Shown here piece by piece: positions 1-49,765 of a DNA stretch of 64,000 nucleotides. The stretch is from an uncultured Bacilli bacterium. Lineage in GTDB: Bacteria; Bacillota_I; Bacilli_A; RF39; UBA660. The translations under genes were made by a program, and so were the position numbers. The stretch spans positions 35,527 through 99,526 of the forward strand of contig CANQSL010000001.1 in the NCBI GenBank assembly GCA_947626515.1, in the 5' to 3' direction. Every line of letters begins with the position of its first letter. Within the stretch, counting starts at the first letter, position 1. The notes below the pieces were generated by a model. It was not told the origin of the DNA, made no database searches, and saw only the letters and a list, made by a program, of their open reading frames with translations.

Positions 1-72
1 AAACATCGTATTGTCTTCACATAAAGACACCATTAAATTAACTAAAAAAAGATAGTTCTTTTTTTTAATTTA

Positions 73-101
73 TGGACTTAAGGACTAGTATTTTGTATAA
101 T
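73..101 (+). promoter_or_regulatory. Putative sigma-A promoter for addB (-35 TGGACT, 17 nt spacer, extended -10 TGtTATAAT)
   Basis: tgtataat at 94-101, -35-like hexamer 73-78, RBS ttggtggt before the ATG at 117. Confidence 0.35.
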
Positions 102-116
102 TAAATTGGTGGTATT

Positions 117-2459
117 ATGCTAAATTTAATAGAAGATAATTCAATTCTTATCATACCAAATAATATAAAAGAAGAAGTAATAAAAAATATAAGAAATCAA
201 AATAAAAATTTAAATATAAAAATATTCTCTTTAGAAGAATTTATTAATAATTTAACATTTACTTACAATGAAGAAACTATTTTTAGATTAATGCAACAAG
301 AAAACGTTAATTATAATATTGCTTCTATATATTTAAATAATATAAAATATGTAGATAAACATTTTAATATCCCTAAATTAGATAAACTTTATAACATAAA
401 AAAAGGCATAGATGATTATTTAATAAAAGACACCTTATTTAAAAAGCTTATTAAAAACAAAAAAATAATTATATATGGATATGATTATATAACAAAATAT
501 CAAGAATACGTTTTAAATGACCTAGAAAATGTAAAAATAATAAAAAAAGTATATAATAATAATAAACATAAAGTATATAGAATAGATACTTTAGAAAATG
601 AAGTTATTTTTGTTGCAGAAAAAATATCACAACTAATAGATGAAGGGGTAAATATCAATAATATTTTTTTAACTAACATAAATGACTCTTATTATACAAC
701 TATAAAACGAATTTTTGATATGTACAATATTCCAGTAAACTTAAATGAAAAGAAGAGTATATATAAAACACACATTGGAACATACTTTATTAATAACCTA
801 TCAAATGATATAGATAAATTATTAAATGATATAAAAAATAAATTTGATTTGAATAATATAAAAAATTATGAGATATATAGTAAAATAATAAATGTATTAA
901 ATAATTTTTACTTTACTAATAATTATATAGAAATAAAAGAAAATATTATTAACGTAATGAAAAAAACTTATATAACCAACAATATATATAAGAATGCAGT
1001 AAATGAAATAGATATAAAAGATAATATGATAGATGATAGTTCTTATGTATTTTTATTAGGATTTAATTTAAATAAATTCCCAATAATTATAAAAGATGAA
1101 GATTATATAGAGGATAATATTAAACCAAGTATATTAGAAACTTCAACCTATATGAATAAATTAAATAATGAATTATATTATAAAATAATATCTAATATAA
1201 AAAATTTAACTATAACTTATAAAGAAAAACATTTAAATGAAGTTTTTTACCCAAGTTTATTAATAGATGAATATAATATGGAAGTCTTAGAAACTAATAT
1301 GGATTACAGTAACTATTCTAATGTTATAAATAAAATTAAATTAACAAAAATGTTAGACAATTTAATTAAATTTAATATAAAGGATGATAAACTTAATTTA
1401 TTATATTCTAATTATAATATAGATTATATGATTTATGATAATAAAGTAACTCCGTTAGATTCAAATTTATTAAATAAATATTTAAATAACAACTTAGTTT
1501 TAAGCTACTCAAGTATGGATAATTTTTATCATTGCTCTTTTAAATTTTTTATATCTAATATATTAAAATTAGATATATTTAATACAACTATACAAACATT
1601 TATAGGAAATCTCTATCACTTTGTCCTTAGCAAATGTTTTAACGAAGATTTTGAATTTTATGAAACAGTAAAATTCTTTTTAGAAAATAACGATCACCCT
1701 AATGATGCTAAATCCTTATATTTTTTAAATAAAGTAATAGAGGAATTAGAATTTGTTATAAAAGATATAAAATACCAACACTCTTTAGGTAATATAGATG
1801 AAATTTTATTTGAAAAAAAAGTTTGTGTGGAAATACCAGGAGTTATTAACACAACATTTAAAGGATTTATTGATAAAATAATAAGACACAATAATAATAT
1901 TATGATAATTGACTATAAAACTTATGACATAGATATTAAATTGAACTTAATAAATTACGGATTATCACTACAGTTACCAATATACTTATATCTTGCTAAA
2001 AATTTAAATAAAAATTATAAAGTAATAGGTTTTTATTTACAACAAATATTATTCAATAATTTTAATAAAGATAAAAATAAAACGGTTGATGAGCAAAAAA
2101 AAGATAAATTAAAATTAAAAGGATATAGTTTAGGTAATGAAATATTATTAAGTGAATTTGATAAAACTTTAAATAGTAGTGAACTAATACACGGAATGAA
2201 AATCACTAATAAAGGATTTGGAGCTTATTCCAATGTATTAACTGAAAAAGAAATTAACAAAATAATATCTATCACAGAAAATAAAATAAAAAGTTGTATA
2301 GAAGATATTAGCGCTGGCATAATAGAAATTAATCCTAAAATAATAGATGGAAAAGAAATAGGCTGTACATATTGTAAGTTTAAAGATATATGCTATAAAA
2401 CTAACAAAGATAATGTTTATTTAGATAAAATAGATAATTTAGATTTTTTAGAGGAATAG
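117..2459 (+). CDS. addB: AddB/RexB-type helicase-nuclease subunit B (short form)
   Basis: C-terminal PD-(D/E)XK-like motif (IDYKTYDID) plus four Cys (FYHC...GCTYCKFKDIC) typical of the AddB iron-sulfur nuclease domain. Immediately upstream of addA. Only 780 aa and no Walker A seen. Confidence 0.7.
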   Translation: MLNLIEDNSILIIPNNIKEEVIKNIRNQNKNLNIKIFSLEEFINNLTFTYNEETIFRLMQQENVNYNIASIYLNNIKYVDKHFNIPKLDKLYNIKKGIDDYLIKDTLFKKLIKNKKIIIYGYDYITKYQEYVLNDLENVKIIKKVYNNNKHKVYRIDTLENEVIFVAEKISQLIDEGVNINNIFLTNINDSYYTTIKRIFDMYNIPVNLNEKKSIYKTHIGTYFINNLSNDIDKLLNDIKNKFDLNNIKNYEIYSKIINVLNNFYFTNNYIEIKENIINVMKKTYITNNIYKNAVNEIDIKDNMIDDSSYVFLLGFNLNKFPIIIKDEDYIEDNIKPSILETSTYMNKLNNELYYKIISNIKNLTITYKEKHLNEVFYPSLLIDEYNMEVLETNMDYSNYSNVINKIKLTKMLDNLIKFNIKDDKLNLLYSNYNIDYMIYDNKVTPLDSNLLNKYLNNNLVLSYSSMDNFYHCSFKFFISNILKLDIFNTTIQTFIGNLYHFVLSKCFNEDFEFYETVKFFLENNDHPNDAKSLYFLNKVIEELEFVIKDIKYQHSLGNIDEILFEKKVCVEIPGVINTTFKGFIDKIIRHNNNIMIIDYKTYDIDIKLNLINYGLSLQLPIYLYLAKNLNKNYKVIGFYLQQILFNNFNKDKNKTVDEQKKDKLKLKGYSLGNEILLSEFDKTLNSSELIHGMKITNKGFGAYSNVLTEKEINKIISITENKIKSCIEDISAGIIEINPKIIDGKEIGCTYCKFKDICYKTNKDNVYLDKIDNLDFLEE

Positions 2460-2462
2460 TTT

Positions 2463-2819
2463 ATGAATAGACTTTTAAATATAGTTAGAATTATTGTTTC
2501 AATAATTCTATGTATAATACTAATAGTATTATTTCTTAATTTAGCAAATGTTACCACTCAATTATTTTTAACGCCATTTTTATTAGCAGCACTTGCAACA
2601 TTAGGATTATCAATATCAATATACAAAGAAAATGATTTGTTAATAGTCTTCTTTCAAAAATGTTATATAATCTCATTTCTTTTATATTGGTTTGGATTGT
2701 TAATCCTAGGGTGTTATACTGCTTTGAAAGACAAACAAATGGGAATGTTATTATTTTCAATACCATTTTGGATAGCAGGAATATTTATAATAAAGAAATA
2801 TTTTTTTGATAAAAAATAA
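2463..2819 (+). CDS. Small polytopic membrane protein (about 4 TM) inserted between addB and addA
   Basis: 118-aa hydrophobic ORF, same strand, tightly packed between the two nuclease-helicase genes. Confidence 0.4.
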   Translation: MNRLLNIVRIIVSIILCIILIVLFLNLANVTTQLFLTPFLLAALATLGLSISIYKENDLLIVFFQKCYIISFLLYWFGLLILGCYTALKDKQMGMLLFSIPFWIAGIFIIKKYFFDKK

Positions 2820-2834
2820 AAGGAGGTTATCAAT

Positions 2835-5800
2835 ATGCCTAAATGGACTGATGAACAAGAGTTAGCAATAAAAGAAAGTGGAAAAAATATATTAGTATCC
2901 GCTGGTGCTGGAAGCGGTAAAACTGCTGTATTAACAGAAAGAGTTATTAGAAAGTTAAAAAATGGCACAAGCATTAAAAATTTATTAATATTAACATTTA
3001 CTAACAATGCTGCATATGAGATGAAATCCAGGATTAAAGATGCTATAAAAAAAGCAATACCTACTAACCCAAAGATAAGACAAGAATTGGATTATATTGA
3101 CAATGCATACATAACAACATTTGATGCCTTTTCATTAAGTATAGTAAAAAAATACCACTATGTACTAAATATAGGTAAGGATATAGGCATAATAGATTCT
3201 AGTATAATTGACTTAAAAAAAGATGAAATATTAGAAAATATATTTTTAGAATTATATAAAACAAAAGATAGTAAATTTTTAAAATTAGTAGATTTAATAT
3301 GTACTAAAGATGATAAAGTTTTAAAAGAATATATATTAAAAATAAATAATAAATTAGATTTATTAATTGATAAAGAACGATATTTAAACAATTATATTAA
3401 TAATTATTATAATATAAACAATATAAATAATATTATTGATGATTATGTTAAATTATTAAAAGAAAAAATAAATATAATTAAAGAATATTTAGATAACTTA
3501 TCTAGTGAAGTAGATACTAAATATATAAATGAGTATACAGATACACTAACTCCATTATTTATATCGGATACATATGAGGACATAAAAACTAATTCAAATA
3601 TAACTTTAAAACAATTAAGAGGAGCAACTGAATTAGGAAAAACTTTAAAAAAAGAAATGAATGAGTTGATTAAAGAAGTAAATAACATGTGTTATTATTC
3701 TAAAGATTTGCTTACAAAAAAAATATTAAGTACTAAAGAATACGTAGAACCTATCATTACTATTATAGACAAATTAAATAAAAATATACAAAACTATAAA
3801 CATAGCATAAATAAATATGAATTTAATGATATAAGTATTATGGCAATAAATATTGTAGAAAATAATCCCTATATAAAAGAAGAATTAACTAATAGTTTTG
3901 AAGAAATCTGTGTTGATGAATATCAAGATACTTCTGATATTCAAGAATACTTTATTAATCTAATAAGTAACCACAATGTATATATGGTTGGAGATATAAA
4001 ACAGAGCATATATAGATTTAGAAATGCCAATCCAGTAATATTTAAAGAAAAATATGAAATATTTTCTAAAGAAATAGAAGGAATTAAAATAGATTTAAAT
4101 AAAAATTTTAGATCAAGAAGTGAAGTATTAGATAATATAAATTTAATATTTAATTTAATAATGGATAAATTTATTGGCGGAGCTGACTATAAACTAAGTC
4201 ATAATATGATATTTGGAAATGAAGCATATATAACTGATGGAAAAACTAATCAAAATTATAATTTAGAAATATTAAATTATGAATACGATAAATTATATAC
4301 AAAAGATGAAATAGAAGCTTTTATTATTGCAAAAGATATAAAAGACAAAATTGAAAATAACTATCAAATTTATGATAAAGACTCGAAAAGTTTAAGAAAT
4401 TTAGAATATAAAGATATAGTTATATTAATGGATAGAGGAACATCTTTTGATTTATATAAAAAAATATTAGAGTATTTTAATATACCTACTACATTACAAA
4501 AAGATGAAAATATAGTCAAAAATACGGTATTAGTGATTATTAAAAATTTAATTAGTCTAATAATAAAAATTAAAGAAAGCATATTTGATCAAGAATTTAA
4601 ATATTTATTTACATCTATAAGTAGAAGTTATATAGAAAGAATAAATGATAATGAACTATTAAATATATTTTATGAGAATAAATTTAAAGATACAGAACTA
4701 TACAAAAAATGTTTACTAATAAGTATTAATATAGATAATATGACTAATAAAGATTTACTAGATAGTATTGTAGAAAACTTTGATATATTTAACAAATTTA
4801 TAACTAATGGTGACATAGAAAATAAAAGAATTATATTAGATTATCTATATAGTATATTTAATGACTTAAACGAAATTGGTTATGATATATATGACTTAGA
4901 AAATTATTTTAATAACATTATAGAAAATGATAAACAATTAAAAATAAATATTACAGATAATACTAATAATACCGTTACAATAACAAATATTCACAAATCC
5001 AAAGGACTAGAATACAATATATGTTACTTTAGTGGATATGATAGAGAATTTAACAAAATGGAATTAAAAGATAAAATAATATATGATAATAAATATGGAA
5101 TTATTTTGCCTGTATATGATGATGGTTTAGAAGATTTAATAACAAAAGATATAATTAAAAATAACTATATTAAAGAAGATATATCTGAAAAAATACGTTT
5201 ATTTTATGTTGCATTAACAAGAGCTAGAGAAAAAATGATAATAGTTACTGATTTAAATAAAGAAACGTTTTCTAAAAAGGATTATAACGACGTTATAATA
5301 AATAGAATAAGACTAAAATATAAAAGTTTTAAAGATATATTATTATCTATAAAAAAAGAATTAACTCCATTCATAAAAAATATAGATATTAATTCTTTAA
5401 ACATAACGAATGAATATAAAAATATTAAATCCATTAATTTGGAGAATTTTATTGATAAAACTGATAAAGTAATTAATATTAAAAAAATTAATGTTGATAA
5501 AAGTCAAGTTATTAACAAACATTTTAGCAAAGTAACCAATAATATTATAAATAAAGAAACTAGAAATAATATGGACTTAGGATTATATATACATGAATTA
5601 TTTGAAACAATAGATTTTAATAATATAGATTTATCAGATATTGATAATAAATATAAAATATATGTTGAAAATTTTATAAATAGTTCATTATTAAAAAATA
5701 TCAGTAGTGCTAAAATTTATAAAGAATATGAATTTATATATGAAGAAGATAATTTAAAATATCATGGTATTATAGATTTAATGCTAGAATATAAAGATTA

Positions 5801-5960
5801 TATTAATATAATAGATTATAAATTAATGTATACAGAAAGCGAAGAATATATAAAACAATTAACAGGCTATAAAAATTATATTGAAAACTCATTTAATAAA
5901 AAAGTTAATTTATATTTATATAGTATAATGAATAACGAATTTAAAGAAATACAAGAATAA
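2835..5960 (+). CDS. addA: AddA/RexA ATP-dependent helicase-nuclease subunit A (UvrD family)
   Basis: Walker A SAGAGSGKTAVL, UvrD-like motifs (DEYQDTS, FRSR), C-terminal nuclease motif IIDLMLEYKDYINIIDYK. Strong RBS aaaggagg 7 nt before the ATG. Confidence 0.85.
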   Translation: MPKWTDEQELAIKESGKNILVSAGAGSGKTAVLTERVIRKLKNGTSIKNLLILTFTNNAAYEMKSRIKDAIKKAIPTNPKIRQELDYIDNAYITTFDAFSLSIVKKYHYVLNIGKDIGIIDSSIIDLKKDEILENIFLELYKTKDSKFLKLVDLICTKDDKVLKEYILKINNKLDLLIDKERYLNNYINNYYNINNINNIIDDYVKLLKEKINIIKEYLDNLSSEVDTKYINEYTDTLTPLFISDTYEDIKTNSNITLKQLRGATELGKTLKKEMNELIKEVNNMCYYSKDLLTKKILSTKEYVEPIITIIDKLNKNIQNYKHSINKYEFNDISIMAINIVENNPYIKEELTNSFEEICVDEYQDTSDIQEYFINLISNHNVYMVGDIKQSIYRFRNANPVIFKEKYEIFSKEIEGIKIDLNKNFRSRSEVLDNINLIFNLIMDKFIGGADYKLSHNMIFGNEAYITDGKTNQNYNLEILNYEYDKLYTKDEIEAFIIAKDIKDKIENNYQIYDKDSKSLRNLEYKDIVILMDRGTSFDLYKKILEYFNIPTTLQKDENIVKNTVLVIIKNLISLIIKIKESIFDQEFKYLFTSISRSYIERINDNELLNIFYENKFKDTELYKKCLLISINIDNMTNKDLLDSIVENFDIFNKFITNGDIENKRIILDYLYSIFNDLNEIGYDIYDLENYFNNIIENDKQLKINITDNTNNTVTITNIHKSKGLEYNICYFSGYDREFNKMELKDKIIYDNKYGIILPVYDDGLEDLITKDIIKNNYIKEDISEKIRLFYVALTRAREKMIIVTDLNKETFSKKDYNDVIINRIRLKYKSFKDILLSIKKELTPFIKNIDINSLNITNEYKNIKSINLENFIDKTDKVINIKKINVDKSQVINKHFSKVTNNIINKETRNNMDLGLYIHELFETIDFNNIDLSDIDNKYKIYVENFINSSLLKNISSAKIYKEYEFIYEEDNLKYHGIIDLMLEYKDYINIIDYKLMYTESEEYIKQLTGYKNYIENSFNKKVNLYLYSIMNNEFKEIQE

Positions 5961-6023
5961 GCACTCTTGTATTTTTATTTTTAAAAAATAAGGAAATGCA
6001 AAAAATAATATAATATAATTTAT

Positions 6024-7445
6024 ATGAATGATTTATTTTATATTGATGGATATTATTTAGATGAATATCAAATTAATTGTATTAAAAATATGAATAATTT
6101 ATTAATTATAGCTGGTGCTGGAAGCGGTAAAACTAGTACCATTTTAGGAAAAGTAAAATATTTAATAAGTATAGGATATAAAGAAAGTGATATATTATGT
6201 ATTAGTTTAACTAACGAAGCAACTAATGGTCTAAAAAATAAACTTTTAAAAATTAATTTGAATGTTACTTGTATGACATTTCATAAGTTAGGTTTATCTA
6301 TATTAAAAAAAATATATCCTAAAGTTAATATATGTAAAGAAGATTATTTAAAATATATAGTAGATGAATACTTTTTAAGTATAGTTAAATATTCTTACAG
6401 AAAATATTTATTATATATGGAATTTAAAACTTTTAAATACAATGATATTATTAATTCTAAAAAATTTTTGTTATATAAAAGAAATATTATGACATTTATT
6501 AATTTATTAAAAAATAAAGACCAAAGCTATGAAAAAATATTTGATTTATATAAAAGCAGCTATAATAAAATAATATATTTATTTATATTAGAAATATATA
6601 GAATATATGATATAGAGTGTTTTAGTACAAATTCCTTTGATTTCAATGATATGATAAACATCTCTGCAAAATTAGTGAAAGAAAAGAAAATTATATTAAA
6701 TTTTAAATACATCATTATTGATGAATTTCAAGATTCAAGTATTATTAAATTTAATTTAATAAATAACATTATTGAAAACAATCACGCAAAATTAATGTGC
6801 GTTGGTGATGATTATCAAAGTATATATAGATTTGCTGGAAGTGATATAAATTTATTTCTTAACTTTACTAAACACTTTAAAAATAGTGAAATAATGTACT
6901 TAAAAAACACTTATAGAAATTCTAAGGAGATTTTATATATAAGTACTAAATTTATATGTAAAAATAAATATCAAATCCCTAAAGATTTATTTAGCGAAAA
7001 AAGTAATAGTAAACCAATAAAACTATATTTTTCTAAAAATAAAACAAAAGCATTAAAATATATTTTAAAATTAATTGGTAATGACTATATGATTATAGGA
7101 AGAAATAATATAGATATAAAATATTATGTTGATAAATATACAGATATTAACAAAATAAAATATTTTACTGCACATAAATCAAAGGGCTTAGAAAGTGAAA
7201 ACATTGTACTTATTAATATAAGCGACGATATAATGGGCTTTCCTTCTAAAATTAAAAATACAAAAATAATAAATAAATTATTTGATAAAGAACTTTATAA
7301 ATATGATGAAGAAAGAAGATTATTTTACGTTGCTATTACTAGAACAAAAAATAATGTTTATATTATTTTAGATAAAAATAACATGTCTATATTTATAAAA
7401 GAGTTAATAAAAGACTTCAAAAAATATATTGAAGTCATTAATTAG
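6024..7445 (+). CDS. Short UvrD/PcrA-family DNA helicase
   Basis: Walker A IIAGAGSGKTSTI, DEFQDSS motif and C-terminal RRLFYVAITRTKNNVYI motif. Only 473 aa. Confidence 0.6.
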   Translation: MNDLFYIDGYYLDEYQINCIKNMNNLLIIAGAGSGKTSTILGKVKYLISIGYKESDILCISLTNEATNGLKNKLLKINLNVTCMTFHKLGLSILKKIYPKVNICKEDYLKYIVDEYFLSIVKYSYRKYLLYMEFKTFKYNDIINSKKFLLYKRNIMTFINLLKNKDQSYEKIFDLYKSSYNKIIYLFILEIYRIYDIECFSTNSFDFNDMINISAKLVKEKKIILNFKYIIIDEFQDSSIIKFNLINNIIENNHAKLMCVGDDYQSIYRFAGSDINLFLNFTKHFKNSEIMYLKNTYRNSKEILYISTKFICKNKYQIPKDLFSEKSNSKPIKLYFSKNKTKALKYILKLIGNDYMIIGRNNIDIKYYVDKYTDINKIKYFTAHKSKGLESENIVLINISDDIMGFPSKIKNTKIINKLFDKELYKYDEERRLFYVAITRTKNNVYIILDKNNMSIFIKELIKDFKKYIEVIN

Positions 7446-8520
7446 TACCTAATAATTTAGCATGAATGACCATTTTAATCTCATGCGTATAACAAGTTGA
7501 AAGTGTCAAAATTTTACTATTTTCGTCTACATCTGTATCAAATTGATACTCACTTCTAGATTTTATCATCTCTAAAAAATCTTTATAATCTTCATCTGAC
7601 TCAAAGTTTGTTGTTAAATAATCTGTAGTTGTTGGAATTTTATAAATACTAAATATTTCCCAATTGCTATTTTGATTCTCTGTTGATATTTTTATAATAA
7701 AGTCTTTTTGATTATACCAACTTTGTTGAAAAACACTTTTTAAAGATCCAAACATTGTTCCATTATATAAACCATGAGCATATATTATAGTATTTTGTGA
7801 TAAGTTATTTATATCGTTTCTATAGTCCATAAAAACCCATCCACCACCATTATATGACTTATCGAACGAATGACTTAAATAGTAATCATTATCATTTGCT
7901 TTTACAAATGGATAATTAACTTTTGTATTAGGCACCTGTAGCCATCCTACTGTTTCATTGTTAATTTCCTTTAATTTATCAAAATTTACATCTATATATG
8001 AATATTCTCTATATTTATAATAATCGCTACTTTCGTCAACCTGAGTAGACATAACTTTTTCATACTCTTCTGAAGATGCAACCACATTTACAACATCAGC
8101 TATATCATATATATTATCAATATTTTTATTAGTCTTTTTATAATTAACTAAATCAACTCCAATTTCATATGATAAAAAAATTATAAAAATTGTTGTTATA
8201 ACAGATAAGGCTCTTAAAAAATTTTTTTCTAATTGTATAAAAATTTTGTTTTTATTTTTCTTAAGTCTAGGTAGCTCAATTAAAATTGTATTTTCAAGAT
8301 TAGGAATTTCCATTTCATTTGATACTTGAGATTTTAACATTGGCATTTCTATTACTTGAGTTTCATCATTTTCAACAGTAAAAGATAATTTCTTTAATTT
8401 AGGGAGTTCTAATATAATTGTATGATCTAAATCTTGAATCTTTTCTTTATATGATTCAATTAAAATTTGTTCTTTTAACTTAGGAATTTCTATTGTTTTT
8501 TCTAAAGATTCTTTATTCAT
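7438..8520 (-). CDS. srtB: Class B sortase with N-terminal cytoplasmic repeat extension
   Basis: Catalytic TLSTCY motif, IIYAHG His motif and SrtB-like VGWLQVPNTKVNYPFV...YYLSHSF region. One TM segment precedes the catalytic domain. The ORF track starts at a TTG (8538); the ATG at 8520 has a GAAAGGAAA RBS. Overlaps the 3' end of the convergent helicase ORF. Confidence 0.7.
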   Translation of the reverse strand: MNKESLEKTIEIPKLKEQILIESYKEKIQDLDHTIILELPKLKKLSFTVENDETQVIEMPMLKSQVSNEMEIPNLENTILIELPRLKKNKNKIFIQLEKNFLRALSVITTIFIIFLSYEIGVDLVNYKKTNKNIDNIYDIADVVNVVASSEEYEKVMSTQVDESSDYYKYREYSYIDVNFDKLKEINNETVGWLQVPNTKVNYPFVKANDNDYYLSHSFDKSYNGGGWVFMDYRNDINNLSQNTIIYAHGLYNGTMFGSLKSVFQQSWYNQKDFIIKISTENQNSNWEIFSIYKIPTTTDYLTTNFESDEDYKDFLEMIKSRSEYQFDTDVDENSKILTLSTCYTHEIKMVIHAKLLGTN

Positions 8521-8608: not shown

Positions 8609-10273
8609 TTACATATTATTAAGTTTGTTTTTTATTTTTTTAATTTTATTTATAACTACTAATAAAGTTATGCAAAGTGTTAATAATAAACCTATATTTA
8701 AATAAAGATTATCAAATGTTTGAGGATTTTTATCAATTGTATTATCTTTACCCTTGTTTGAATTATTATTTGTTGAACTAACTTTTTTTGTTGTAGGTTT
8801 TTTTGTTGTAGTTGCTGATGAATTTTTATTGGATAAATAAATTAGTTTGTTGCCATATTTTTTTGATGTATTTTCTATTATACCAAATTCACCTAATTTA
8901 TTTGTTGAAACAACAACATTTTTAGATCCATCATATTTAGTAGGATACACTGCTATATCATTATCTATAATTACAATAGCAGCACCCTTTAAATTTGTAT
9001 AATTACTTAAAGAAGTGTTCATATAACTTGTATCAAAATATACTTCATACGTATTATTATTAATATTTACTGGGCTTTCGTACTCATTTAATAATTGTAT
9101 TTTATAAATTCCATAATCATATACGTTTTCTTTTGATAATGCTTCTATTTTATTTTTGTCACTAGTATTTTTTATTTGATGATCAACATTTAAATAATAA
9201 TTTGACCTCAAAGCATTATTACTTTTTACAACTATTTCATTTCCTAAAAGAATATTTCCATATCTAAGTAAATATTTTTCACTAAAATTATAATTATAAT
9301 CAACATCAGATAATACCAAATCTCCATCTTCATTAAATCCCTTATATAATTTAGAGGTAAATGTATTATAGTAATCTTTTTTTGTAAAAGAATTGTATTC
9401 TACTTTTTGTTGCATTTTTGGAGATTTGCTAGATAAATCAATAATTTGTTTCAATGAAGACGCTATTTCAGTTTTATTTAAAGTATCTTTATTAAATAAA
9501 TTTGTAAATGATTCAAATATATTATCATTATTCCATACATCTTCCGTTACAGTACCATCTTTAAAATATTTATTTGGATAACTGGATTTTAAAACTTTAT
9601 ACCTCTCTGCTCCAGATGAAACATACTCATTTGCATATTGATCTGCTAAAGCTTTTGAGTCTCCATATGTCACTTCTCTTATTGTATTAGTATCACTATC
9701 TCTTGTTACAAGTATTCCACTTATATTTTTGCCATTTTTATTTTTATAAGATAATCTCATGTTATTATATACTAAACTATAATTATGAGAACCTAAGGTT
9801 GAATCCATATCGATAAATTTATAACCATAATTTGAATTTATTATATTTTTAACAATTAAAGCACCATTTTTATTAGCAGTAACATTTATCTTACTTTCAT
9901 CTAATTCTTTATACAAGTAATTTACGATTACATCTTTAGTAACCGTTATGTTTATATCTTTTTTCCCTATTTGAGCAATTAAATCATATGTTCCTTCCTC
10001 TATTTCTAGTCTATTTTCTTCTTCAACTAATAAAACGTCATTATTATGAGATTCTCCTGCCCCTTCAAATCCTGCATTAGAATACACAAAACAATATTTA
10101 GAAACATTTTCTTCTATTTCTTCATCTGTTTCTAATTTTCTTACAGTTTCTATAAATGGAGATTTACAAACTAAAAATTTAAATTCTTCTTTAGTTGCTG
10201 CTTTAACAGTAACACTAGAAAACAGTATTGAAATAGCACTCAATCCTATACAAAACTTATCTATTTTTCTCAT
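8609..10273 (-). CDS. Secreted cell-wall-anchored surface protein (sortase B substrate candidate)
   Basis: N-terminal signal peptide (MRKIDKFCIGLSAISILFSSVTVKA). C-terminal NPQTF motif followed by a hydrophobic segment and a KKIKNK tail, i.e. an SrtB-type (NPQTN-like) sorting signal. Thr/Lys-rich stalk before the motif. Directly upstream of srtB. Confidence 0.65.
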   Translation of the reverse strand: MRKIDKFCIGLSAISILFSSVTVKAATKEEFKFLVCKSPFIETVRKLETDEEIEENVSKYCFVYSNAGFEGAGESHNNDVLLVEEENRLEIEEGTYDLIAQIGKKDINITVTKDVIVNYLYKELDESKINVTANKNGALIVKNIINSNYGYKFIDMDSTLGSHNYSLVYNNMRLSYKNKNGKNISGILVTRDSDTNTIREVTYGDSKALADQYANEYVSSGAERYKVLKSSYPNKYFKDGTVTEDVWNNDNIFESFTNLFNKDTLNKTEIASSLKQIIDLSSKSPKMQQKVEYNSFTKKDYYNTFTSKLYKGFNEDGDLVLSDVDYNYNFSEKYLLRYGNILLGNEIVVKSNNALRSNYYLNVDHQIKNTSDKNKIEALSKENVYDYGIYKIQLLNEYESPVNINNNTYEVYFDTSYMNTSLSNYTNLKGAAIVIIDNDIAVYPTKYDGSKNVVVSTNKLGEFGIIENTSKKYGNKLIYLSNKNSSATTTKKPTTKKVSSTNNNSNKGKDNTIDKNPQTFDNLYLNIGLLLTLCITLLVVINKIKKIKNKLNNM

Positions 10274-14720: not shown

Positions 14721-15076
14721 TGGTGGAGCCGAGCAGAATTGAACTGCTGTCCAAAATACTTTCTTACTTAGCGTCTACAAGTTTAGTTAGAGCTATATAT
14801 TCATTAATAAAAAAGAGTCTAACATCTATTTATTAATATAGTTTAATAAAATTCAATAATTATTCTAAACAAAATAATTATTATATCTTATATATATGAA
14901 CCTTAATTTAATCTATAAGCAAAAAAAATTAAAGTGCGCCATTGCCAAATTAGGCAAATGCTAAAGCGCTATTTGTATTATAATTTTTGTCAGTTAATTT
15001 TAAACTGTTGCCACTTAGGATTGGCCACCACTTGCAACTAAATAGAAATATATTCTGTCGAAACCATTACGACCCC
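14721..15076 (-). ncRNA. ssrA: tmRNA (SsrA), about 356 nt
   Basis: On the - strand the 5' end GGGGUCGUAAUGGUUUCGACAG closely matches the Bacillus-type tmRNA start GGGGACGUUACGGAUUCGACAG. 5' GGGGUCG pairs with the 3' acceptor CGGCUCCACCA. The 3' end GGACAGCAGUUCAAUUCUGCUCGGCUCCACCA has a T-arm (AGCAG/UUCAAUU/CUGCU) and ends in CCA. An internal reading frame ends ...NSALAFA-UAA (tag-peptide-like). Confidence 0.8.
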
Positions 15077-31119: not shown

Positions 31120-32724
31120 CTATCTAATTTCTATTATATCACTGCCAAAAATTTCTGTAGCCAAATTTTGACCAGCATTATTAACACTTTTATTTTCTTC
31201 TGTTTTTTCTTCTATATATTCAAAATTTCTAACTTTATTTTTTATAAATCTATCTTTTTCTTCTAACCACTCTTTTTTGGTTAAAGCAATAAATTTGTAA
31301 TTAGAATTATATAAAGTATTATACTCTCTTTCTATCTCTTCTTTTTTTGAATTAAATAATAAAGCTTCATTTTCATTCTCTGTTGAAAATAAAATATTTG
31401 TCTCCGATACTACTTCTATATTCATATTTTCAACATTTCCTAAAATACTAAAATTTTTATTTATTGTAAGATTTTCAATAAATTTTTTCCAATTTTCCAT
31501 AATTTCATTTTTTAATTGTTTCGATGCTTTATAAAAACTATTATTAATTCTTATCTTTTTTATTTCTATTAAATCACTTTGATCTTCCATTTCTGGAATT
31601 TCATTTAAGATATCTTCGTCTTTAGCCTCAATATTATCAGTTTTTTTGATATCCATTATTATTTCTTGTTTTTTATGTTCATTGGAAAATATTTCCCGGG
31701 AAATATTTTCTTCTTTATTATTACTATTAAAAGCAATTAATTCTACTTTGATTATTGTGTATGGATTAACTATAGAATTTGTTTGCAATAAAACTCCATT
31801 CAAAGAATTTATTAGTTTTTTTAAAATTTGAGAATTGGTGCTTTTTTCTACTAGCATTTTATCTAATAAAAATTCTATAAAGTAATTTATAAAATTTAAT
31901 GGTGTAACTCCACTTTTATTTATTTCATCTATTATTTTATTTATTTCGTATTTGTCGTTAGCTATTACTTTATCATATAGCAATGCCATTGTATTATTAG
32001 ATAAAATGCCAAAACACTTTTCGACTAAATCAACACTTACTTTTGTATTAAATTTAGACACTTGATCCAAATAACTTAGAGCATCTCTTAAACATCCATC
32101 AGAATATTTTATTAATTCATTTAAAGCCTCATCTTCAATTTTTATTTTTTCTAATGATGCTATTTTTTTTAGATGTTCAAACATAATTTCAGATGGTATT
32201 TTTGAAAAATCAAATCTTTGACATCTTGACATTACTGTTTCTGGAACTTTATTTATATCAGTTGTTGCCATAATAAAAACAACATGGCTTGGAGGTTCTT
32301 CTAAGGTTTTTAAAAAAGCATTCCATGCACTGTTTGATAACATGTGTACTTCATCTATAATATATATTTTATATTTTGAGTTATATGGAGCAACTTTAAC
32401 ACTATCTCTCAAAGCTCTAATTTCTTCAACGCCATTATTGCTAGCAGCATCTATTTCTATTATATCTGCAGATTCATTATACTCTAAACATCTTTCACAT
32501 TTATCACACGAAATTCCATTTGAATTGTCCAAGCAATTTAAAGTCTTTGCAAAAATTTTAGCAGTACTTGTTTTTCCTGTTCCTCTTGGACCAGTAAATA
32601 TATATGCATGGGCTATTTTATTCAATTTAATTGAATTAGTTAATATTTCTTTAATATTATCTTGGCCAATTAATTCATTAAAATTTTTTGGTCTATATTT
32701 TCTATAAAATACTTTATAATCCAT
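31120..32724 (-). CDS. dnaX: DNA polymerase III subunit tau/gamma
   Basis: Walker A GPRGTGKTS, zinc module CDKCERC and the YRPKNF start region. GGAGGG RBS before MDYKVF, whereas the track start is further upstream. Confidence 0.9.
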   Translation of the reverse strand: MDYKVFYRKYRPKNFNELIGQDNIKEILTNSIKLNKIAHAYIFTGPRGTGKTSTAKIFAKTLNCLDNSNGISCDKCERCLEYNESADIIEIDAASNNGVEEIRALRDSVKVAPYNSKYKIYIIDEVHMLSNSAWNAFLKTLEEPPSHVVFIMATTDINKVPETVMSRCQRFDFSKIPSEIMFEHLKKIASLEKIKIEDEALNELIKYSDGCLRDALSYLDQVSKFNTKVSVDLVEKCFGILSNNTMALLYDKVIANDKYEINKIIDEINKSGVTPLNFINYFIEFLLDKMLVEKSTNSQILKKLINSLNGVLLQTNSIVNPYTIIKVELIAFNSNNKEENISREIFSNEHKKQEIIMDIKKTDNIEAKDEDILNEIPEMEDQSDLIEIKKIRINNSFYKASKQLKNEIMENWKKFIENLTINKNFSILGNVENMNIEVVSETNILFSTENENEALLFNSKKEEIEREYNTLYNSNYKFIALTKKEWLEEKDRFIKNKVRNFEYIEEKTEENKSVNNAGQNLATEIFGSDIIEIR

Positions 32725-32776: not shown

Positions 32777-33190
32777 TTATCTTATTTTATTAAATATTTT
32801 TGACATATTTTTTTGAAATTTTTCTTTATTTATATCATACATTTGTTCGTATATTGTTTTATTGTATTTATTTGTTATATTGCCTTTCTTTAAAATATAA
32901 TATACTTTTTTTATTCTAGCTTCTGAGATAGCTTCTTTGCACATATCGCACGGTTCCAACGTAACGTACATTTCACAGTCTGATAAATTCCATCTTTTTA
33001 ATTTTTTAAAGCTTTTTAGTAAACACAATATTTCTGCATGATATAATGAATTTCTTTTTATATTTTTTTGATTATATGCTTTTGCAATAATTTTGTTACT
33101 TTTTAAAATTAAAGCACTCACTGGTATTTCATTTTTTTTATAAGCTTTATTTGATAATTTGAATAATTCTTTTGATATTTTTGTATTCAT
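32777..33190 (-). CDS. tadA: tRNA-specific adenosine deaminase
   Basis: HAEILC and LEPCDMC deaminase zinc motifs. Real start probably MNTKISKELF. Confidence 0.8.
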   Translation of the reverse strand: MNTKISKELFKLSNKAYKKNEIPVSALILKSNKIIAKAYNQKNIKRNSLYHAEILCLLKSFKKLKRWNLSDCEMYVTLEPCDMCKEAISEARIKKVYYILKKGNITNKYNKTIYEQMYDINKEKFQKNMSKIFNKIR

Positions 33191-33318
33191 AATTTCTCCA
33201 TAAAAAAAGTGCACATTAATATTATTTAATATGGCTGCTACGTTCCCGTCCTGACCAGGTAATAAAAATATTAATTGCACGATATAATATTATCATTTTT
33301 TTTAAACTATATCAAGTT

Positions 33319-33426
33319 AATGTTTCACGTGAAACATTCTGAATACTAATTATTAAAAAACAATGTTTCACGTGAAACATTGTTCTAATCGTTTTATGCT
33401 TTTTATATGTTTCACGTGAAACATAT
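33319..33426. promoter_or_regulatory. Three perfect 20-22 bp palindromes (AATGTTTCACGTGAAACATT; CAATGTTTCACGTGAAACATTG; ATATGTTTCACGTGAAACATAT) phased about 43-44 bp apart
   Basis: Read directly from sequence at 33319-33338, 33361-33382 and 33405-33426. They lie in the intergenic region between the gyrA stop and the tadA-dnaX operon start. Confidence 0.6.
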
Positions 33427-33428
33427 AA

Positions 33429-35891
33429 TTAGCTATCTTTGCTTTCAGAATCTTCTTCATTTGCAATTAAATCATTTTTAGTTACAAGACTTATAGTTGA
33501 TACTTCTTGTTTTTCTTTTAAATTAATTAATTTGATTCCTTGAGTAACTCTGCCTAATTGACTAATTTGATCAATTGGAAGCCTAATTACCATTCCTGAA
33601 TTAGTGATTATCATAAGATCACTATCTGGAATAGTAATTTTAAATGATGCAATAGAACCATTTTTATCTGTAATATTTAAAGCTTTAACACCTTTTCCAC
33701 CTCTTTTAGTAGTTCTATACTCGCTTATCAAAGTTTTCTTACCATAACCTTTTTTAGTTACTATAAGGATATTATCATTTAAAGTACCAATCTCAATTCC
33801 TGTACACGTAGCTCCTTCACTTAAATTAATACCTCTAACTCCAGATGCAGTTCTTCCCATTACTCTTATTTCATTTTCATTAAACACTACCATTCTTCCA
33901 TCAGAAGAGCCCATTAAAATATAATCTTCTCCTAAAGACTTTTTAACACCTATTAATTCATCATTATCTCTCAACGTTATACAAATTTTACCTGTTGCTC
34001 TAATATTATTAAAATCTTCAATTAAAGTACGTTTACTAAATCCTTTTTTCGTTCCAAAGATTAAATATTTAGCTTTATCATCCTTACTTATCTTTATAAC
34101 AGAATTTATAAATTCATCTTTTTCGATAGGCAATAAATTAATTATTGGCAATCCTTTTGCTTGTTTGCTAAATTCAGGGATTTCGTATCCTTTTATACGA
34201 TAAACTTTACCTTTATTACTAAAGAATAAAACATAATCATGTGTTGAAATATCAATCATTTGTTCTACAAAATCCTCTTCGTTAGTTGACATTCCCTTTA
34301 CACCTACCCCACCTCTATTTTGAGACTTATAAGTATCAAGTGCTAATCTTTTTATATAACCTTTATTAGTTAAAGTAACTATTACTTCTTCTTCAGGTAT
34401 TAAAGATTCATCTTCTATATATTCTATTGCGGTCATATCGATTTTAGTTCTACGATCATCAGCATATTTATCCTTTATTTCTAACAATTCATCTTTTATT
34501 ATTGCTAATATTTTATCTCTAGATGCTAAAATAGATTTATACTCTTCTATTTTTTGCAATAACTCTTTTAATTCTTCTTCTATTTTTGCTCTCTCTAAAC
34601 CTGTTAATCTACGAAGTTTTAATTCTAATATCGCATCAGCTTGAATATCCGTTAATCCGTATTTAGATATCAATTTTTGTTTTGCAATAATATCAGTTTC
34701 AGATTCTCTAATTATTTTTATAAAATCATCTAAATTATCTAAAGCGATTTTGTACCCTTCTAAAATATGTACTCTTTTTTCTGCTTTATCTAATTCAAAT
34801 CTCGTTCTTCTAATAATAATTTCTTCTTGATAATTAATATATTTTACAATAATATCTTTTAAACCTAATGTTTTAGGAACTTTATTATCAATCATTAAGA
34901 ATATTATTCCATATGTTGTTTGAAATTGAGTGTGTTTATACAAATTGTTTAAAACAACTTGTGGATTAGCATCTTTTTTTAAAGTTATTGTAATCTTTAC
35001 TCCATTTTTTAAATCTGTATGATAATCTGAAATACCATCTATTATTTTGTTATGAACTAACTCAGCAACTTTAGTTTTCAAGTCAGATACATTTACTCCA
35101 TATGGTACTTCATCAACAATAATATAATTTCTTCCATTTTTTTCTTCAATAGTTGCCTTACTTCTTATAGTTATTGTTCCTCTACCAGTTTCATATGCTT
35201 TTTTTATACCATTATTTCCTAAAATTATACCTCCTGTTGGAAAATCTGGTCCTTTTATATACTGCATAAGTCCTAACGTATCTATTTCAGGATTATCTAT
35301 ATAAGCAACACAACCATCAATTACTTCTCCTAAATTATGAGGGGGAATGTTTGTAGCCATTCCTACAGCTATTCCCATAGTACCATTTACTAAAATATTA
35401 GGAAATCTTGAAGGTAAAATCTCTGGTTCCCTTTCAGATTCATCAAAATTTGGTTTAAAATCTACAGTATCTTTATTAATGTCTCTTAATAACTCTAAAG
35501 ATATTTTTGATAATCTAGACTCAGTATAACGCATAGCTGCTGCGCCAGATCCTGCTATATTTCCAAAATTTCCATGACCATCTACTAAACAGTTTCTATA
35601 GCTAAAGTCTTGGGCCATTCTAACCATTGCCTCATATATACTAGAATCACCATGAGGATGATATTTACCCATAACATCTCCGACTATACGAGCAGATTTT
35701 TTATGAGGTTTATCTGGAGTGTAGCCTGATTCATTCATTGACCATAAAATTCTTCTATGAACAGGTTTTAAACCGTCTCTCAAATCTGGTAATGCTCTTG
35801 AAACAATTACACTCATGGAATATTCAATAAACGAAGAATTAATTTCATCTACTATATTGTTTTCTTCTAATCTATCTCTACTATTATTCAT
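33429..35891 (-). CDS. gyrA: DNA gyrase subunit A
   Basis: AMRYTE active-site Tyr region, GyrA box and beta-pinwheel C-terminal domain. Confidence 0.95.
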
Positions 35892-39009: not shown

Positions 39010-39471
39010 TTATTTAGCTTTTCTTTTTTGAAAAATTGATTCTAATCTATGAGATTTTAAAATTTGATTATTTAATACACAAAACGATGTATTAATTTCC
39101 AATTTTTCACCATTATCAAATAGTATTATTGAAGAATTTTTATTAAAGTCATAATAATAATCTTCAATATTATTTAAAGAAATCCACATACAATTTTTTA
39201 ATCTTGGACTTGTAGTTGGAAAAAATATTATATTATTATCTTCTTGAACAACTATTGGGGCTTTATAACTAATACCAGTTAATGACATTGTTCCTTTTTG
39301 CCTTCCTTCTATAGAACTTCCATAATACCTACAACTTTCATCCATAATATTCTTGGGTGAATTATTAATAATTATTGAACAATCTTTTTCTATAACTTTG
39401 GACTTTTTTTCACCTATAGGTATTATTGCTAATGTTTCTTTAGATATTTCATAATCTTTCAACCTATTCAC
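39010..39471 (-). CDS. ComK-family protein (competence transcription factor-like)
   Basis: Aligns by eye with B. subtilis ComK: IIPIGEKKSKVIEKDCSII / CRYYGSSIEGRQKGT / YKAPIVVQEDNNIIFFPTTSPRLKNCMWIS versus VLPEEIDGKICSKIIEKDCVFYV / CRFFGSSYAGRKAGT / HKPPIMVDPSNQIFLFPTLSSTRPQCGWIS. Confidence 0.6.
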   Translation of the reverse strand: MNRLKDYEISKETLAIIPIGEKKSKVIEKDCSIIINNSPKNIMDESCRYYGSSIEGRQKGTMSLTGISYKAPIVVQEDNNIIFFPTTSPRLKNCMWISLNNIEDYYYDFNKNSSIILFDNGEKLEINTSFCVLNNQILKSHRLESIFQKRKAK

Positions 39472-40834: not shown

Positions 40835-42178
40835 TTAAGTAATCTTTGCTTTAATTTCTTTTATTTGATTTTGTAATTCTTCATTATTTATCAAATCTTT
40901 AGTAACTTTTTCGATAGCATGTAATATAGTGGAATGATCTCTATTTCCAAATTCTAAACCAATTCTAGTTGTTGTTTCTTCTGTAGTATTCCTACAAATA
41001 TATATCGCTATTTGTCTAGCATTATTAATGTTTGCAGTTCTTTTCTTACTCTTTAAGCTTTCAACGGTTATATCGAAATAATCTGCGACGGCTTTTTGAA
41101 TTTTCCCAATATTATTTGTTGAATAAACTGAATTTCCTAAGTAATCTTTTAAGGCTTCAGTAGCAAATTCTAGGTTTATTTCTTTTGGATTATACATAGC
41201 TACATAAGCATAAAGTCTATTTATTGCGCCCTCTAAATGTCTTACATCACTTTCGCAATTATTGGCAATATATTCTATTACTTCATTTTTTACTAACTTT
41301 GCAACTTCATGTCCAGACATTTTATCTTTAAGAATCTTACATCTTAATTCAAAGTCTGGAGGAAAAATATTTGCGGTTAATCCCCATCTAAATCGAGTTA
41401 CGAGTCTATCTTCTAATAATTTTAAATCATCTGGAGATCTATCTGAACTGATGACTATTTGTTTATGAGAATCATATAGTGTATTAAACGTGTGGAAAAA
41501 TTCTTGTTGTGTTTTTTCAGCACCACCCAAAAATTGTATATCATCGATTATTAATACGTCTATATTTCTATATTTATCTTTAAAATGTTGAACAACATCA
41601 AAATTATCTGTCTCTTTTTTATTTATACCTATAAAATCGGAAATAAAAGTTTCGCTGGTTGTATATAATACATTTTTATCTGAATGTTCCACAATATAAT
41701 TACCTATAGCGTGCATTAAATGTGTTTTTCCGAGTCCACTTTTTCCATGTAAGAATAAAGGATTATATACTTTGCCTGGCTGTTCTGCTACAGCAACCGC
41801 TGCCGTTTGAGCAAGTCTATTAGTATCACCTATAACATAATTTTCAAACGTATATTGAGGTTTTAAATTAGTTTGAAAAGTTTCTTTTTTTTCTACTTTA
41901 TTGACAGTTATGTTTTGAGTATCACTTATAATATCTTCTTCTACTACAAATGAAATATCATAGGTTTTTCCTGTCAATGTTTTCAATATGCTTTCTATTT
42001 CATCATAATAATTGTTATTTAGAAAGTCTTTATGAAAGGTCATTGGGACAATAATTGTTATAGAATTATCTGTCATTGAGGCTATTTTAGTATCTTTAAA
42101 CCAAGTATCAAATGAAACACTAGAAATTTTTGATTTAATAACTTCTAAAAAAGTATTCCAAGAGAACTCTTCATTCAT
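40835..42178 (-). CDS. dnaA: Chromosomal replication initiator DnaA
   Basis: AAA+ motifs GKSGLGKTHLMHAIGN and LIIDDIQFL, plus the C-terminal DNA-binding domain. GGGGTGG RBS before MNEEFSW. Confidence 0.9.
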   Translation of the reverse strand: MNEEFSWNTFLEVIKSKISSVSFDTWFKDTKIASMTDNSITIIVPMTFHKDFLNNNYYDEIESILKTLTGKTYDISFVVEEDIISDTQNITVNKVEKKETFQTNLKPQYTFENYVIGDTNRLAQTAAVAVAEQPGKVYNPLFLHGKSGLGKTHLMHAIGNYIVEHSDKNVLYTTSETFISDFIGINKKETDNFDVVQHFKDKYRNIDVLIIDDIQFLGGAEKTQQEFFHTFNTLYDSHKQIVISSDRSPDDLKLLEDRLVTRFRWGLTANIFPPDFELRCKILKDKMSGHEVAKLVKNEVIEYIANNCESDVRHLEGAINRLYAYVAMYNPKEINLEFATEALKDYLGNSVYSTNNIGKIQKAVADYFDITVESLKSKKRTANINNARQIAIYICRNTTEETTTRIGLEFGNRDHSTILHAIEKVTKDLINNEELQNQIKEIKAKIT

Positions 42179-42196
42179 AAAACCACCCCGCTCCAT

Positions 42197-44549: not shown

Positions 44550-44662
44550 GCATTTTTTTAATAAAATTATTTCCCGGGAAATAATTTTATATAACATAGA
44601 ATAAATTAATTTACTTTTAAACTTAAATCTACTATAATACATTTTGTGAAGTGGTGATATAA

Positions 44663-48715: not shown

Positions 48716-49765
48716 ATGAATGTAGAATCACAAGTACAATATATAAATGTTGAGAACATTATACCTAATAGATTTCAACCAAGACTTACATTTGATGAAA
48801 ATGCTTTAAGAGACTTAGCAAGTTCAATAAAAGAACATGGAATAATTCAACCTTTGGTGTTGAGAAAATTATCTGAAGACAAATTTGAGATTATAGCAGG
48901 AGAGAGAAGATATAAAGCAGCTCAAATTGCAGGATTAGAAAATGTTCCCGCTATTATTGCAAATTTAGATGACAATGCTTCTGCAGAAGTTGCATTAGTT
49001 GAAAATTTGCAAAGGAAAGATTTATCTCCAATAGAAAAAGCTAAATCTTATGAAAAGCTTTTAAATAGAGGAAATACTCAAGAAGAACTTGCAAAAAAAA
49101 TGGGTGTTTCTCAATCTTCAATTGCAAATACTATAAGATTATTAAACTTAGAACCAGAAACTCAAGATGCTTTGATGAAAGAAAAAATATCTGAAAGACA
49201 TGCTAGAAGCTTATTGCAAATAAAAGATCATGATAAACAGATTGAAATGTTAAATAAAATTATAAATGAAAGATTAACTGTTAGGCAGTTAGATGAACAA
49301 ATAAAAAAAATGAATGATGCACCAGAAATGGAAAGTTTTTCACTAACAGAAGCAATTGATAATCTTCCAGAAATGGAAACTTTTAGTATTGAAGATAAAC
49401 CAGTTTTAGAATCAGAGAATATAGAAGATTCAAAAGAAGTTGTAGCAATTGATGAAACTGAAGATTTACAAGATGCTATTAATGATTTAGATATTTCTAA
49501 ATTAATTGAGAATGCTCAAAAAGATTTAAAAAATAAATATGAAATATACGATATTCCAACTGCTGAAGAAGCTTCTAATGATGACGAAAAGAAAGAAGAT
49601 ATAAATATAGATAATTCTCTAAAAATTGAGAATGGAAATTTAGATTCAGTTATAAATGCAATAAAAGAATTAGAAGAAAAAATATCTCAAGCGGGCTTTA
49701 AAATTGATACAGAAGACTACGATTTTGAAGATTTATATCAAATAATAATAAAAATTGAAAAATAA
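48716..49765 (+). CDS. parB: ParB/Spo0J (or Noc)-family partition protein with acidic C-terminal extension
   Basis: ParB box IIAGERRYKAAQIAGLENVPAII and an HTH (ELAKKMGVSQSSIANTI). No adjacent parA. Confidence 0.75.
   Translation: MNVESQVQYINVENIIPNRFQPRLTFDENALRDLASSIKEHGIIQPLVLRKLSEDKFEIIAGERRYKAAQIAGLENVPAIIANLDDNASAEVALVENLQRKDLSPIEKAKSYEKLLNRGNTQEELAKKMGVSQSSIANTIRLLNLEPETQDALMKEKISERHARSLLQIKDHDKQIEMLNKIINERLTVRQLDEQIKKMNDAPEMESFSLTEAIDNLPEMETFSIEDKPVLESENIEDSKEVVAIDETEDLQDAINDLDISKLIENAQKDLKNKYEIYDIPTAEEASNDDEKKEDINIDNSLKIENGNLDSVINAIKELEEKISQAGFKIDTEDYDFEDLYQIIIKIEK

Follow-up and report, generated by a model that had tools for sequence, protein, structure and literature searches.

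Three probable parS sites in tandem downstream of gyrA in an uncultured member of Bacilli and a Noc-type ParB paralog predicted to read a different motif

Immediately downstream of gyrA, in the origin region of an uncultured member of Bacilli, lies a run of three palindromes, which raises the questions of what these sites are and which protein reads them. We investigated these questions in a 64-kb stretch of the genome (the window) and in related loci from metagenomes. Three matches to the parS sequence TGTTTCACGTGAAACA, each identical at 16/16 positions, are present at 33321-33336 (site 1), 33364-33379 (site 2) and 33408-33423 (site 3). Their start-to-start distances are 43 and 44 bp and together they span 103 bp of a single intergenic spacer, with site 2 at the center of a perfect palindrome of 26 bp (33359-33384) and site 3 beginning 5 nt past the gyrA stop codon. 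No further match with three or fewer mismatches exists anywhere in the window, and at the same threshold dinucleotide-preserving shuffles of the window gave a mean of 0.21 matches, with none of 100 reaching three. The palindromes thus match the parS consensus exactly, as the initial annotation had stated for their core. The unit common to all three is an 18-mer, ATGTTTCACGTGAAACAT. The stretches between the sites are mutually unrelated, and a repeat search returns only a 20-nt repeat family; hence no larger unit has recently been duplicated in tandem to give the copies.

The sites occupy the 142-bp gap between the gyrA stop (33429) and ffs, the gene for the small SRP RNA. The three neighboring genes are on the minus strand: gyrA (33429-35891; NCBIfam gyrA model, 1141 bits) forms the upstream flank, ffs (33200-33286; Rfam RF00169, 55.7 bits, with the gathering score at 40) the downstream flank, and a tadA-like deaminase gene (32777-33190), with an ATG start preceded by GGAGAAATT, follows ffs. 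The deaminase scores 72.8 bits with the TadA model, which is below the cut-off of 150, and its name therefore rests on family membership and synteny. Accordingly, the gyrA-tadA spacer had been named correctly in the initial annotation, but an RNA gene intervenes between the palindromes and tadA. The cumulative GC skew of this AT-rich window (G+C ~23%) has its minimum at ~42.2 kb, where dnaA (40835-42196, minus strand) diverges from the plus-strand genes rnpA-yidC-jag-mnmE-mnmG-rsmG. Leftward from there the order is dnaA, dnaN, a ComK-like gene, recF, gyrB, gyrA, the palindromes, ffs, the tadA-like gene, dnaX, ybaB, recR, bofA and holB. The sites lie ~8.8 kb from both the dnaA start and the skew minimum, in agreement with the earlier placement about 9 kb from dnaA on the gyrA side. 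A scan for DnaA boxes (TTATCCACA, at most one mismatch) returned no informative cluster in the window, and the origin is therefore placed by GC skew and gene order.

The window also encodes SpoIIR, SpoIID, SpoVG, YabP, YabG and BofA along with the RNA polymerase delta subunit, which points to a spore-forming member of Bacilli. Several other features of the window deserve mention in their own right. The ComK-family gene (39010-39471, minus strand; Pfam E = 8e-43) is situated in the recF/dnaN interval, inside the core origin cluster, and a gene of this family is found at the same position in the relatives L201-L206. A tmRNA gene is present at 14721-15076 (minus strand), with the tag peptide DKNYNTNSALAFA. 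Over the first ~8 kb (1-8000) the GC skew flips to positive and the genes flip to the plus strand, against the leading-strand bias of the remaining left replichore. The region, which encodes AddB/AddA-like nuclease-helicases along with a second UvrD-type helicase, may have been inverted or inserted as a block.

A GyrA-based scan of metagenome contigs from gut and rumen recovered 80 loci, in which we counted as parS-like any site with at most two mismatches and used tadA and dnaX as landmarks of the spacer; the same consensus with the same tolerance is the working definition of parS in the field (PMC10197239). Where GyrA identity is 65-79% (64 loci), parS-like sites are found only downstream of gyrA; where it drops to 52-54%, none are seen downstream of this gene. 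The gyrA-tadA spacer carries such sites in 40 of the 43 related loci that hold both the end of gyrA and tadA. Its length ranges from 268 to 1660 bp and its complement of sites from zero to nine, the number of sites tracking the length of the spacer (r = 0.71 across the 43 loci). Altogether, 175 sites were counted in 37.6 kb of spacer against nine in 507.5 kb elsewhere, which amounts to a ~260-fold higher density in the spacer, and all nine outside sites are just past the tadA start, mostly in the tadA-dnaX interval. The ffs gene borders the array on its tadA side or, as in L178, lies within it.

Nearly all variation among these sites falls at consensus position 5/12, which is the N of the classical consensus TGTTNCACGTGAAACA. 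The four T/C variants at this position, TGTTTCACGTGAAACA (103 copies), TGTTCCACGTGGAACA (61), TGTTCCACGTGAAACA (21) and TGTTTCACGTGGAACA (12), account for 197 of 222 sites. This is a ParB-like substitution pattern. In 151 of 159 sites the 16-mer is preceded by A and followed by T, making the conserved unit of this lineage an 18-mer, and these nearly constant flanks, together with the unrelated spacers, indicate selection on the site itself. The site is kept letter for letter while copy number, spacing and spacer sequence change, as expected where selection acts on a site that binds protein. Their sequence, location and conservation thus place the sites almost certainly in the chromosomal parS class. 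The array can nevertheless be lost or moved, as indicated by four loci without sites. Two of these, L167 and L177, are syntenic (gyrA-ffs-tadA) with spacers of 268 and 385 bp that contain neither parS nor Noc-binding sites (NBS). The other two, L122 and L123, are among the closest relatives by GyrA and have no sites downstream of gyrA, which is explained by a break of synteny after this gene; in L123 gyrA is followed by a long ORF, which by eye we take to be a P-type ATPase, running off the contig end.

The closest syntenic relative, L121, shows a further pattern. In its region 8730-9700 six parS copies share the extended flank ATGTTTCACGTGAAACAT(0-3 nt)TGTTGAWAAC, the tail of which is the reverse complement of the DnaA-box-like TTATCAACA. 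This flank was not found at the three sites of the window. It could reflect duplication of a unit or be an additional binding site.

The close packing of the three sites had been regarded as unusual, parS sites being normally dispersed. A search for two perfect parS sites 31-61 bp apart, covering one genome per species, argues otherwise. Tandem pairs were found at no fewer than 120 loci (species), and among the 120 loci listed 24 have three sites in a row and two have four, giving 26 with three or four. These loci come from Actinobacteria, Firmicutes, Proteobacteria, Bacteroidetes, Chloroflexi and others, with triplet spacings such as 39/39 in Collinsella, 41/42 in Streptococcus and 44/44 in a Streptomyces. 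The majority adjoin parAB or rsmG: among the 120 listed, a ParB ORF is present at 64 loci, ParA at 68 and rsmG at 56; only two are near gyrA. Thus, the tight tandem architecture is common and it is the gyrA-tadA address that is specific to this lineage. Nor does the description of the sites as phased hold for the lineage, since no helical periodicity was seen among its adjacent-site spacings (Rayleigh p ~0.5 at 10-11 bp). These extend from 28 to ~280 bp and cluster narrowly at 37-47 bp and more broadly at 100-170 bp. The cross-phylum tandem set gives a weak periodicity signal, confounded by many near-identical Collinsella loci.

Which protein, then, reads these sites? The initial annotation had matched them to the ParB gene at 48716 (48716-49765, plus strand), whose product has ParB_N and HTH_ParB domains. 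This gene lies directly after rsmG, the place of noc in B. subtilis, and the best NCBIfam model for its product is nucleoid_noc (TIGR04285), with a score of 273.5 bits that stays under the cut-off of 315 because, owing to an insert, only positions 1-200 of the 255 in the profile align. In HMMER alignments to proteins of solved structure it scores 204, 203 and 175 bits with Noc of Geobacillus and B. subtilis (7NG0, 7NFU, 7OL9) and 171 and 166 bits with Spo0J (1VZ0, 6SDK). Residues equivalent to 173, 179, 184 and 201 of Caulobacter ParB set the specificity for parS versus NBS, and those of Noc are QKKR (Jalal et al. 2020, PMC7383237). In the aligned specificity region the 48716 protein reads ...GVSQSSIANTIRLLNL...ISERHAR, compared with GKGQSTIANKLRLLKL...ITERHAR in Noc and GKSRPHIANHLRLLTL...LSMGHGR in Spo0J. 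It has Q and R at the equivalents of R173 and G201, and its four specificity residues are QTNR, with T in the position of K179 and hence no permissive K/R at either 179 or 184. Of its 117 parsed orthologs, 107 have QKNR, six QKKR and two QTNR.

The protein belongs to a large subfamily whose members, 227-785 aa long, fall into at least 150 clusters at 50% identity that score above classical Noc against it. QKNR is found in 106 of the 147 parsed representatives of this subfamily and Q..R in all 147. The N-terminal amphipathic membrane-targeting helix was not found in the 48716 protein, in which 8 residues precede the ParB-N domain: it aligns from residue 5-6, as against residue 26-29 of the full-length Noc chains, and its stop-to-stop ORF has room for only six extra codons. 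Short N-termini are seen throughout the parsed subfamily, with 16 residues before PNRFQPR in 96 of the 117 parsed orthologs. The 48716 protein additionally has an acidic insert of ~100 aa.

A search of the window for NBS with at most two mismatches recovered two perfect copies of the 16-bp TATTTCCCGGGAAATA, where 0.21 are expected. One (31690-31705) is inside dnaX, ~1070 nt into the coding sequence, at a position kept in many relatives, and the other (44568-44583) is in the jag-mnmE gap, where it is kept in all seven relatives examined (L201, L203-L208). In the gyrA-tadA spacer of relatives NBS are ~15-fold enriched (21 in 32 kb versus 18 in 423 kb) and often interleaved with parS. For instance, L148 (8480-8760) has three to four repeats of a perfect 82-bp tandem unit with one NBS and one AGTTTCACGTGAAACT, L141 (8560-8850) has a 135-bp unit, and in L121 (8440-9830) three NBS are followed by seven parS, with a fourth NBS among the latter. 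We hence predict, from these sequence comparisons, that the 48716 protein is of the Noc type and reads the NBS at 31690 and 44568 rather than parS. The proposed match between the sites and the 48716 gene is consequently not supported, given the Q and R at the R173 and G201 equivalents, the higher scores with Noc than with Spo0J and the two perfect NBS.

A canonical ParB, with R173 and G201, was sought by phmmer with B. subtilis Spo0J and Soj as queries against all ORFs of the window and of the 80 gyrA loci; the Spo0J query is consistent with PDB 6SDK as aligned here. Neither a canonical ParB nor a second ParB-family ORF nor a ParA/Soj with a deviant Walker A motif was detected in the 64-kb window, and no canonical ParB or ParA/Soj was detected in the gyrA loci of the 64 relatives or the noc loci of eight relatives (~1 Mb of origin regions). 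The only ParB matches among the 80 gyrA loci came from four distant ones with 52-54% GyrA identity. In the noc neighborhood of relatives rsmG-noc is followed by a convergent gene for PBP1A, and soj-spo0J is not present. Likewise, an exhaustive search of representatives with the 48716 protein gave 150 hits, of which all the parsed ones are of the Noc type with Q..R. As the 48716 protein, the sole member of the ParB family in view, is of the Noc type, the ParB that binds the sites should lie outside the window. The separate conservation of two motifs, parS and NBS, implies two binding specificities, and the reader of parS is thus most likely a canonical ParB encoded elsewhere in the genome. In Staphylococcus aureus spo0J is likewise encoded elsewhere.

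These observations have to be weighed against other explanations of the palindromes. The 48716 protein could itself bind them as the single partition protein of the genome, since it is the only ParB-family gene in the 64 kb around the origin and no second one was seen in the origin region of any relative examined. [quoted passage not shown] With the perfect NBS of the window, their conserved positions in relatives and the two specificities implied by two distinct motifs, we regard this explanation as quite improbable.

Alternatively, the palindromes might act primarily as hairpins of the gyrA mRNA, that is as terminators or stabilizers of its 3'-end, rather than as protein-binding DNA. All three fold stably on the gyrA strand (-14.3 kcal/mol for site 3, -13.5 for site 2 and -8.9 for the remaining one), the fold of site 2 having a z of -3.9 with none of 200 shuffles as stable. 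Site 3 has no U-tract; site 2 is followed by UUUUUU and constitutes a terminator-like element (33352-33384, minus strand, in the sense of gyrA) in which the hairpin precedes UUUUUUAAUAAUU. Among relatives, six or more T in eight follow one or more of the sites on the sense strand in 17 of 40 arrays, but a sense-strand T-tract is seen at only 23 of the 175 sites, so that termination is at most a secondary use of some copies. Moreover, complementarity would be sufficient for a hairpin, yet the 16-18-mer is kept exactly across 65-79% GyrA identity; as terminators, neither arrays of up to nine copies across 1.6 kb nor sites lying past ffs and tadA would make sense; and a simple consensus scan listed no terminator at the sites. 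A primary role in RNA is accordingly very improbable, though site 2 may also serve gyrA as an intrinsic terminator, a short distance ahead of the ffs promoter. That promoter (33315-33287, minus strand), predicted as TTGATA-17-TGaTAATAT with an extended -10 and correctly placed for ffs, bears on a third explanation, in which the CACGTG-centered palindromes are operators through which an unrelated transcription factor regulates ffs or gyrA: site 1 ends 5 bp upstream of its -35 hexamer. Against this, no other promoter in the 64 kb has a copy nearby, the sites of relatives are scattered over spacers of up to 1.6 kb with no fixed distance to ffs, and the identity to pan-bacterial parS is 16/16 with the same tolerated variable position. 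We consider operators very improbable as well.

The three palindromes are thus very probably chromosomal parS sites that make up an origin-proximal, centromere-like locus read by a canonical ParB encoded outside the window. The ParB-loading role suggested at the outset appears by far the best reading in light of the exact match, the origin proximity and the comparative data. Each 16-18-bp palindrome would serve as a nucleation point for a dimer of canonical ParB/Spo0J, which would close into a clamp in a CTP-dependent manner, spread onto flanking DNA and recruit the SMC condensin to the origin region, along with ParA, if the genome encodes one (the general ParB-CTP clamp, spreading and SMC mechanism is reviewed in PMC7333895). 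Three adjacent nucleation sites would give a higher loading rate at a single locus, and the resulting complex would occupy the stretch between the point at which gyrA transcription ends and the start of ffs, a very active RNA gene. On this model the gyrA-tadA spacer would be the conserved home of parS arrays in the lineage, with copy number expanding and contracting between species, and the window would hold a compact three-site version.

In several respects this locus resembles the parS-Spo0J system of B. subtilis and other Firmicutes, with which it shares the 16-bp palindrome, the origin-proximal placement and the tolerated variable position. The gene order of the window, dnaA-dnaN-recF-gyrB-gyrA...tadA-dnaX-ybaB-recR on one side and rnpA-yidC-jag-mnmE-mnmG-rsmG-noc on the other, is also B. 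subtilis-like. However, the parS sites of B. subtilis are dispersed singly, whereas the window packs three into one spacer, the conserved site of this lineage is an 18-mer, and the soj-spo0J pair that follows noc in B. subtilis is not at that position in the window or its relatives. Streptococcus pneumoniae and Staphylococcus aureus do without ParA, relying solely on ParB-parS and SMC (PMC7333895), and the window is like them in having no ParA near its origin within the 64 kb seen. Tandem parS triplets at 41-42 bp in two Streptococcus metagenome-assembled genomes (L042, L075) are comparable to that of the window. In Caulobacter, Myxococcus, Streptomyces, Corynebacterium and gut commensals parS sites are likewise clustered, with several in a small origin-proximal zone, and Hi-C work on gut bacteria found several parS within one 5-kb bin (PMC10197239). 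Copy number varies by species in these systems too, which fits the idea of a self-reinforcing expansion near an original site (PMC7333895). Relative to them the cluster in the window is far tighter, and it is tied to gyrA-tadA, not to parAB/rsmG.

We also considered the sopC-type plasmid centromere. In the sopC locus of the F plasmid a 43-bp unit occurs in 12 direct copies, and each copy includes a 16-bp inverted repeat to which SopB binds (PMC3177203); the 16-bp inverted repeats of the window at a pitch of 43-44 bp are reminiscent of it. However, the whole 43-bp unit is repeated in sopC, whereas the sites of the window share only 18-20 bp with unrelated spacers between them, and both the motif and the branch of the protein family differ. 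We therefore treat this as a resemblance and not as membership of that class. The 48716 protein, for its part, is akin to the Noc/NBS system in its Q173/R201-type residues, its location after rsmG, its Noc-like C-terminal sequence and the perfect NBS. It departs from classical Noc in the absence of the membrane helix, the long acidic insert, the T in place of K179 and the score under the NCBIfam cut-off. The relatives of the window further differ from the Noc/NBS system in co-clustering NBS with parS.

For annotation, the gyrA-ffs spacer should be described as a centromere-like parS locus and the 48716 gene should be called Noc-type, not ParB. The parS class and its clustering are already known, and what merits a specialist look are the composite arrays of parS and NBS seen across the lineage and the subfamily of helix-less Noc proteins. 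As a speculative proposal, which we consider unlikely though less so than the alternatives weighed above, the gyrA-tadA spacer might be an evolvable composite centromere, with the helix-less Noc redeployed as a second origin-organizing clamp beside ParB; in a more extreme version the lineage may be without a canonical ParB, parS being read by something else. Why parS sites multiply and cluster is listed as an open question in a review of these systems (PMC7333895), and the lineage bears on it as a natural series of zero to nine parS copies in one fixed spacer. The co-clustering of NBS with parS, along with the helix-less Noc subfamily, offers leads for work on the CTP switch of the ParB family.
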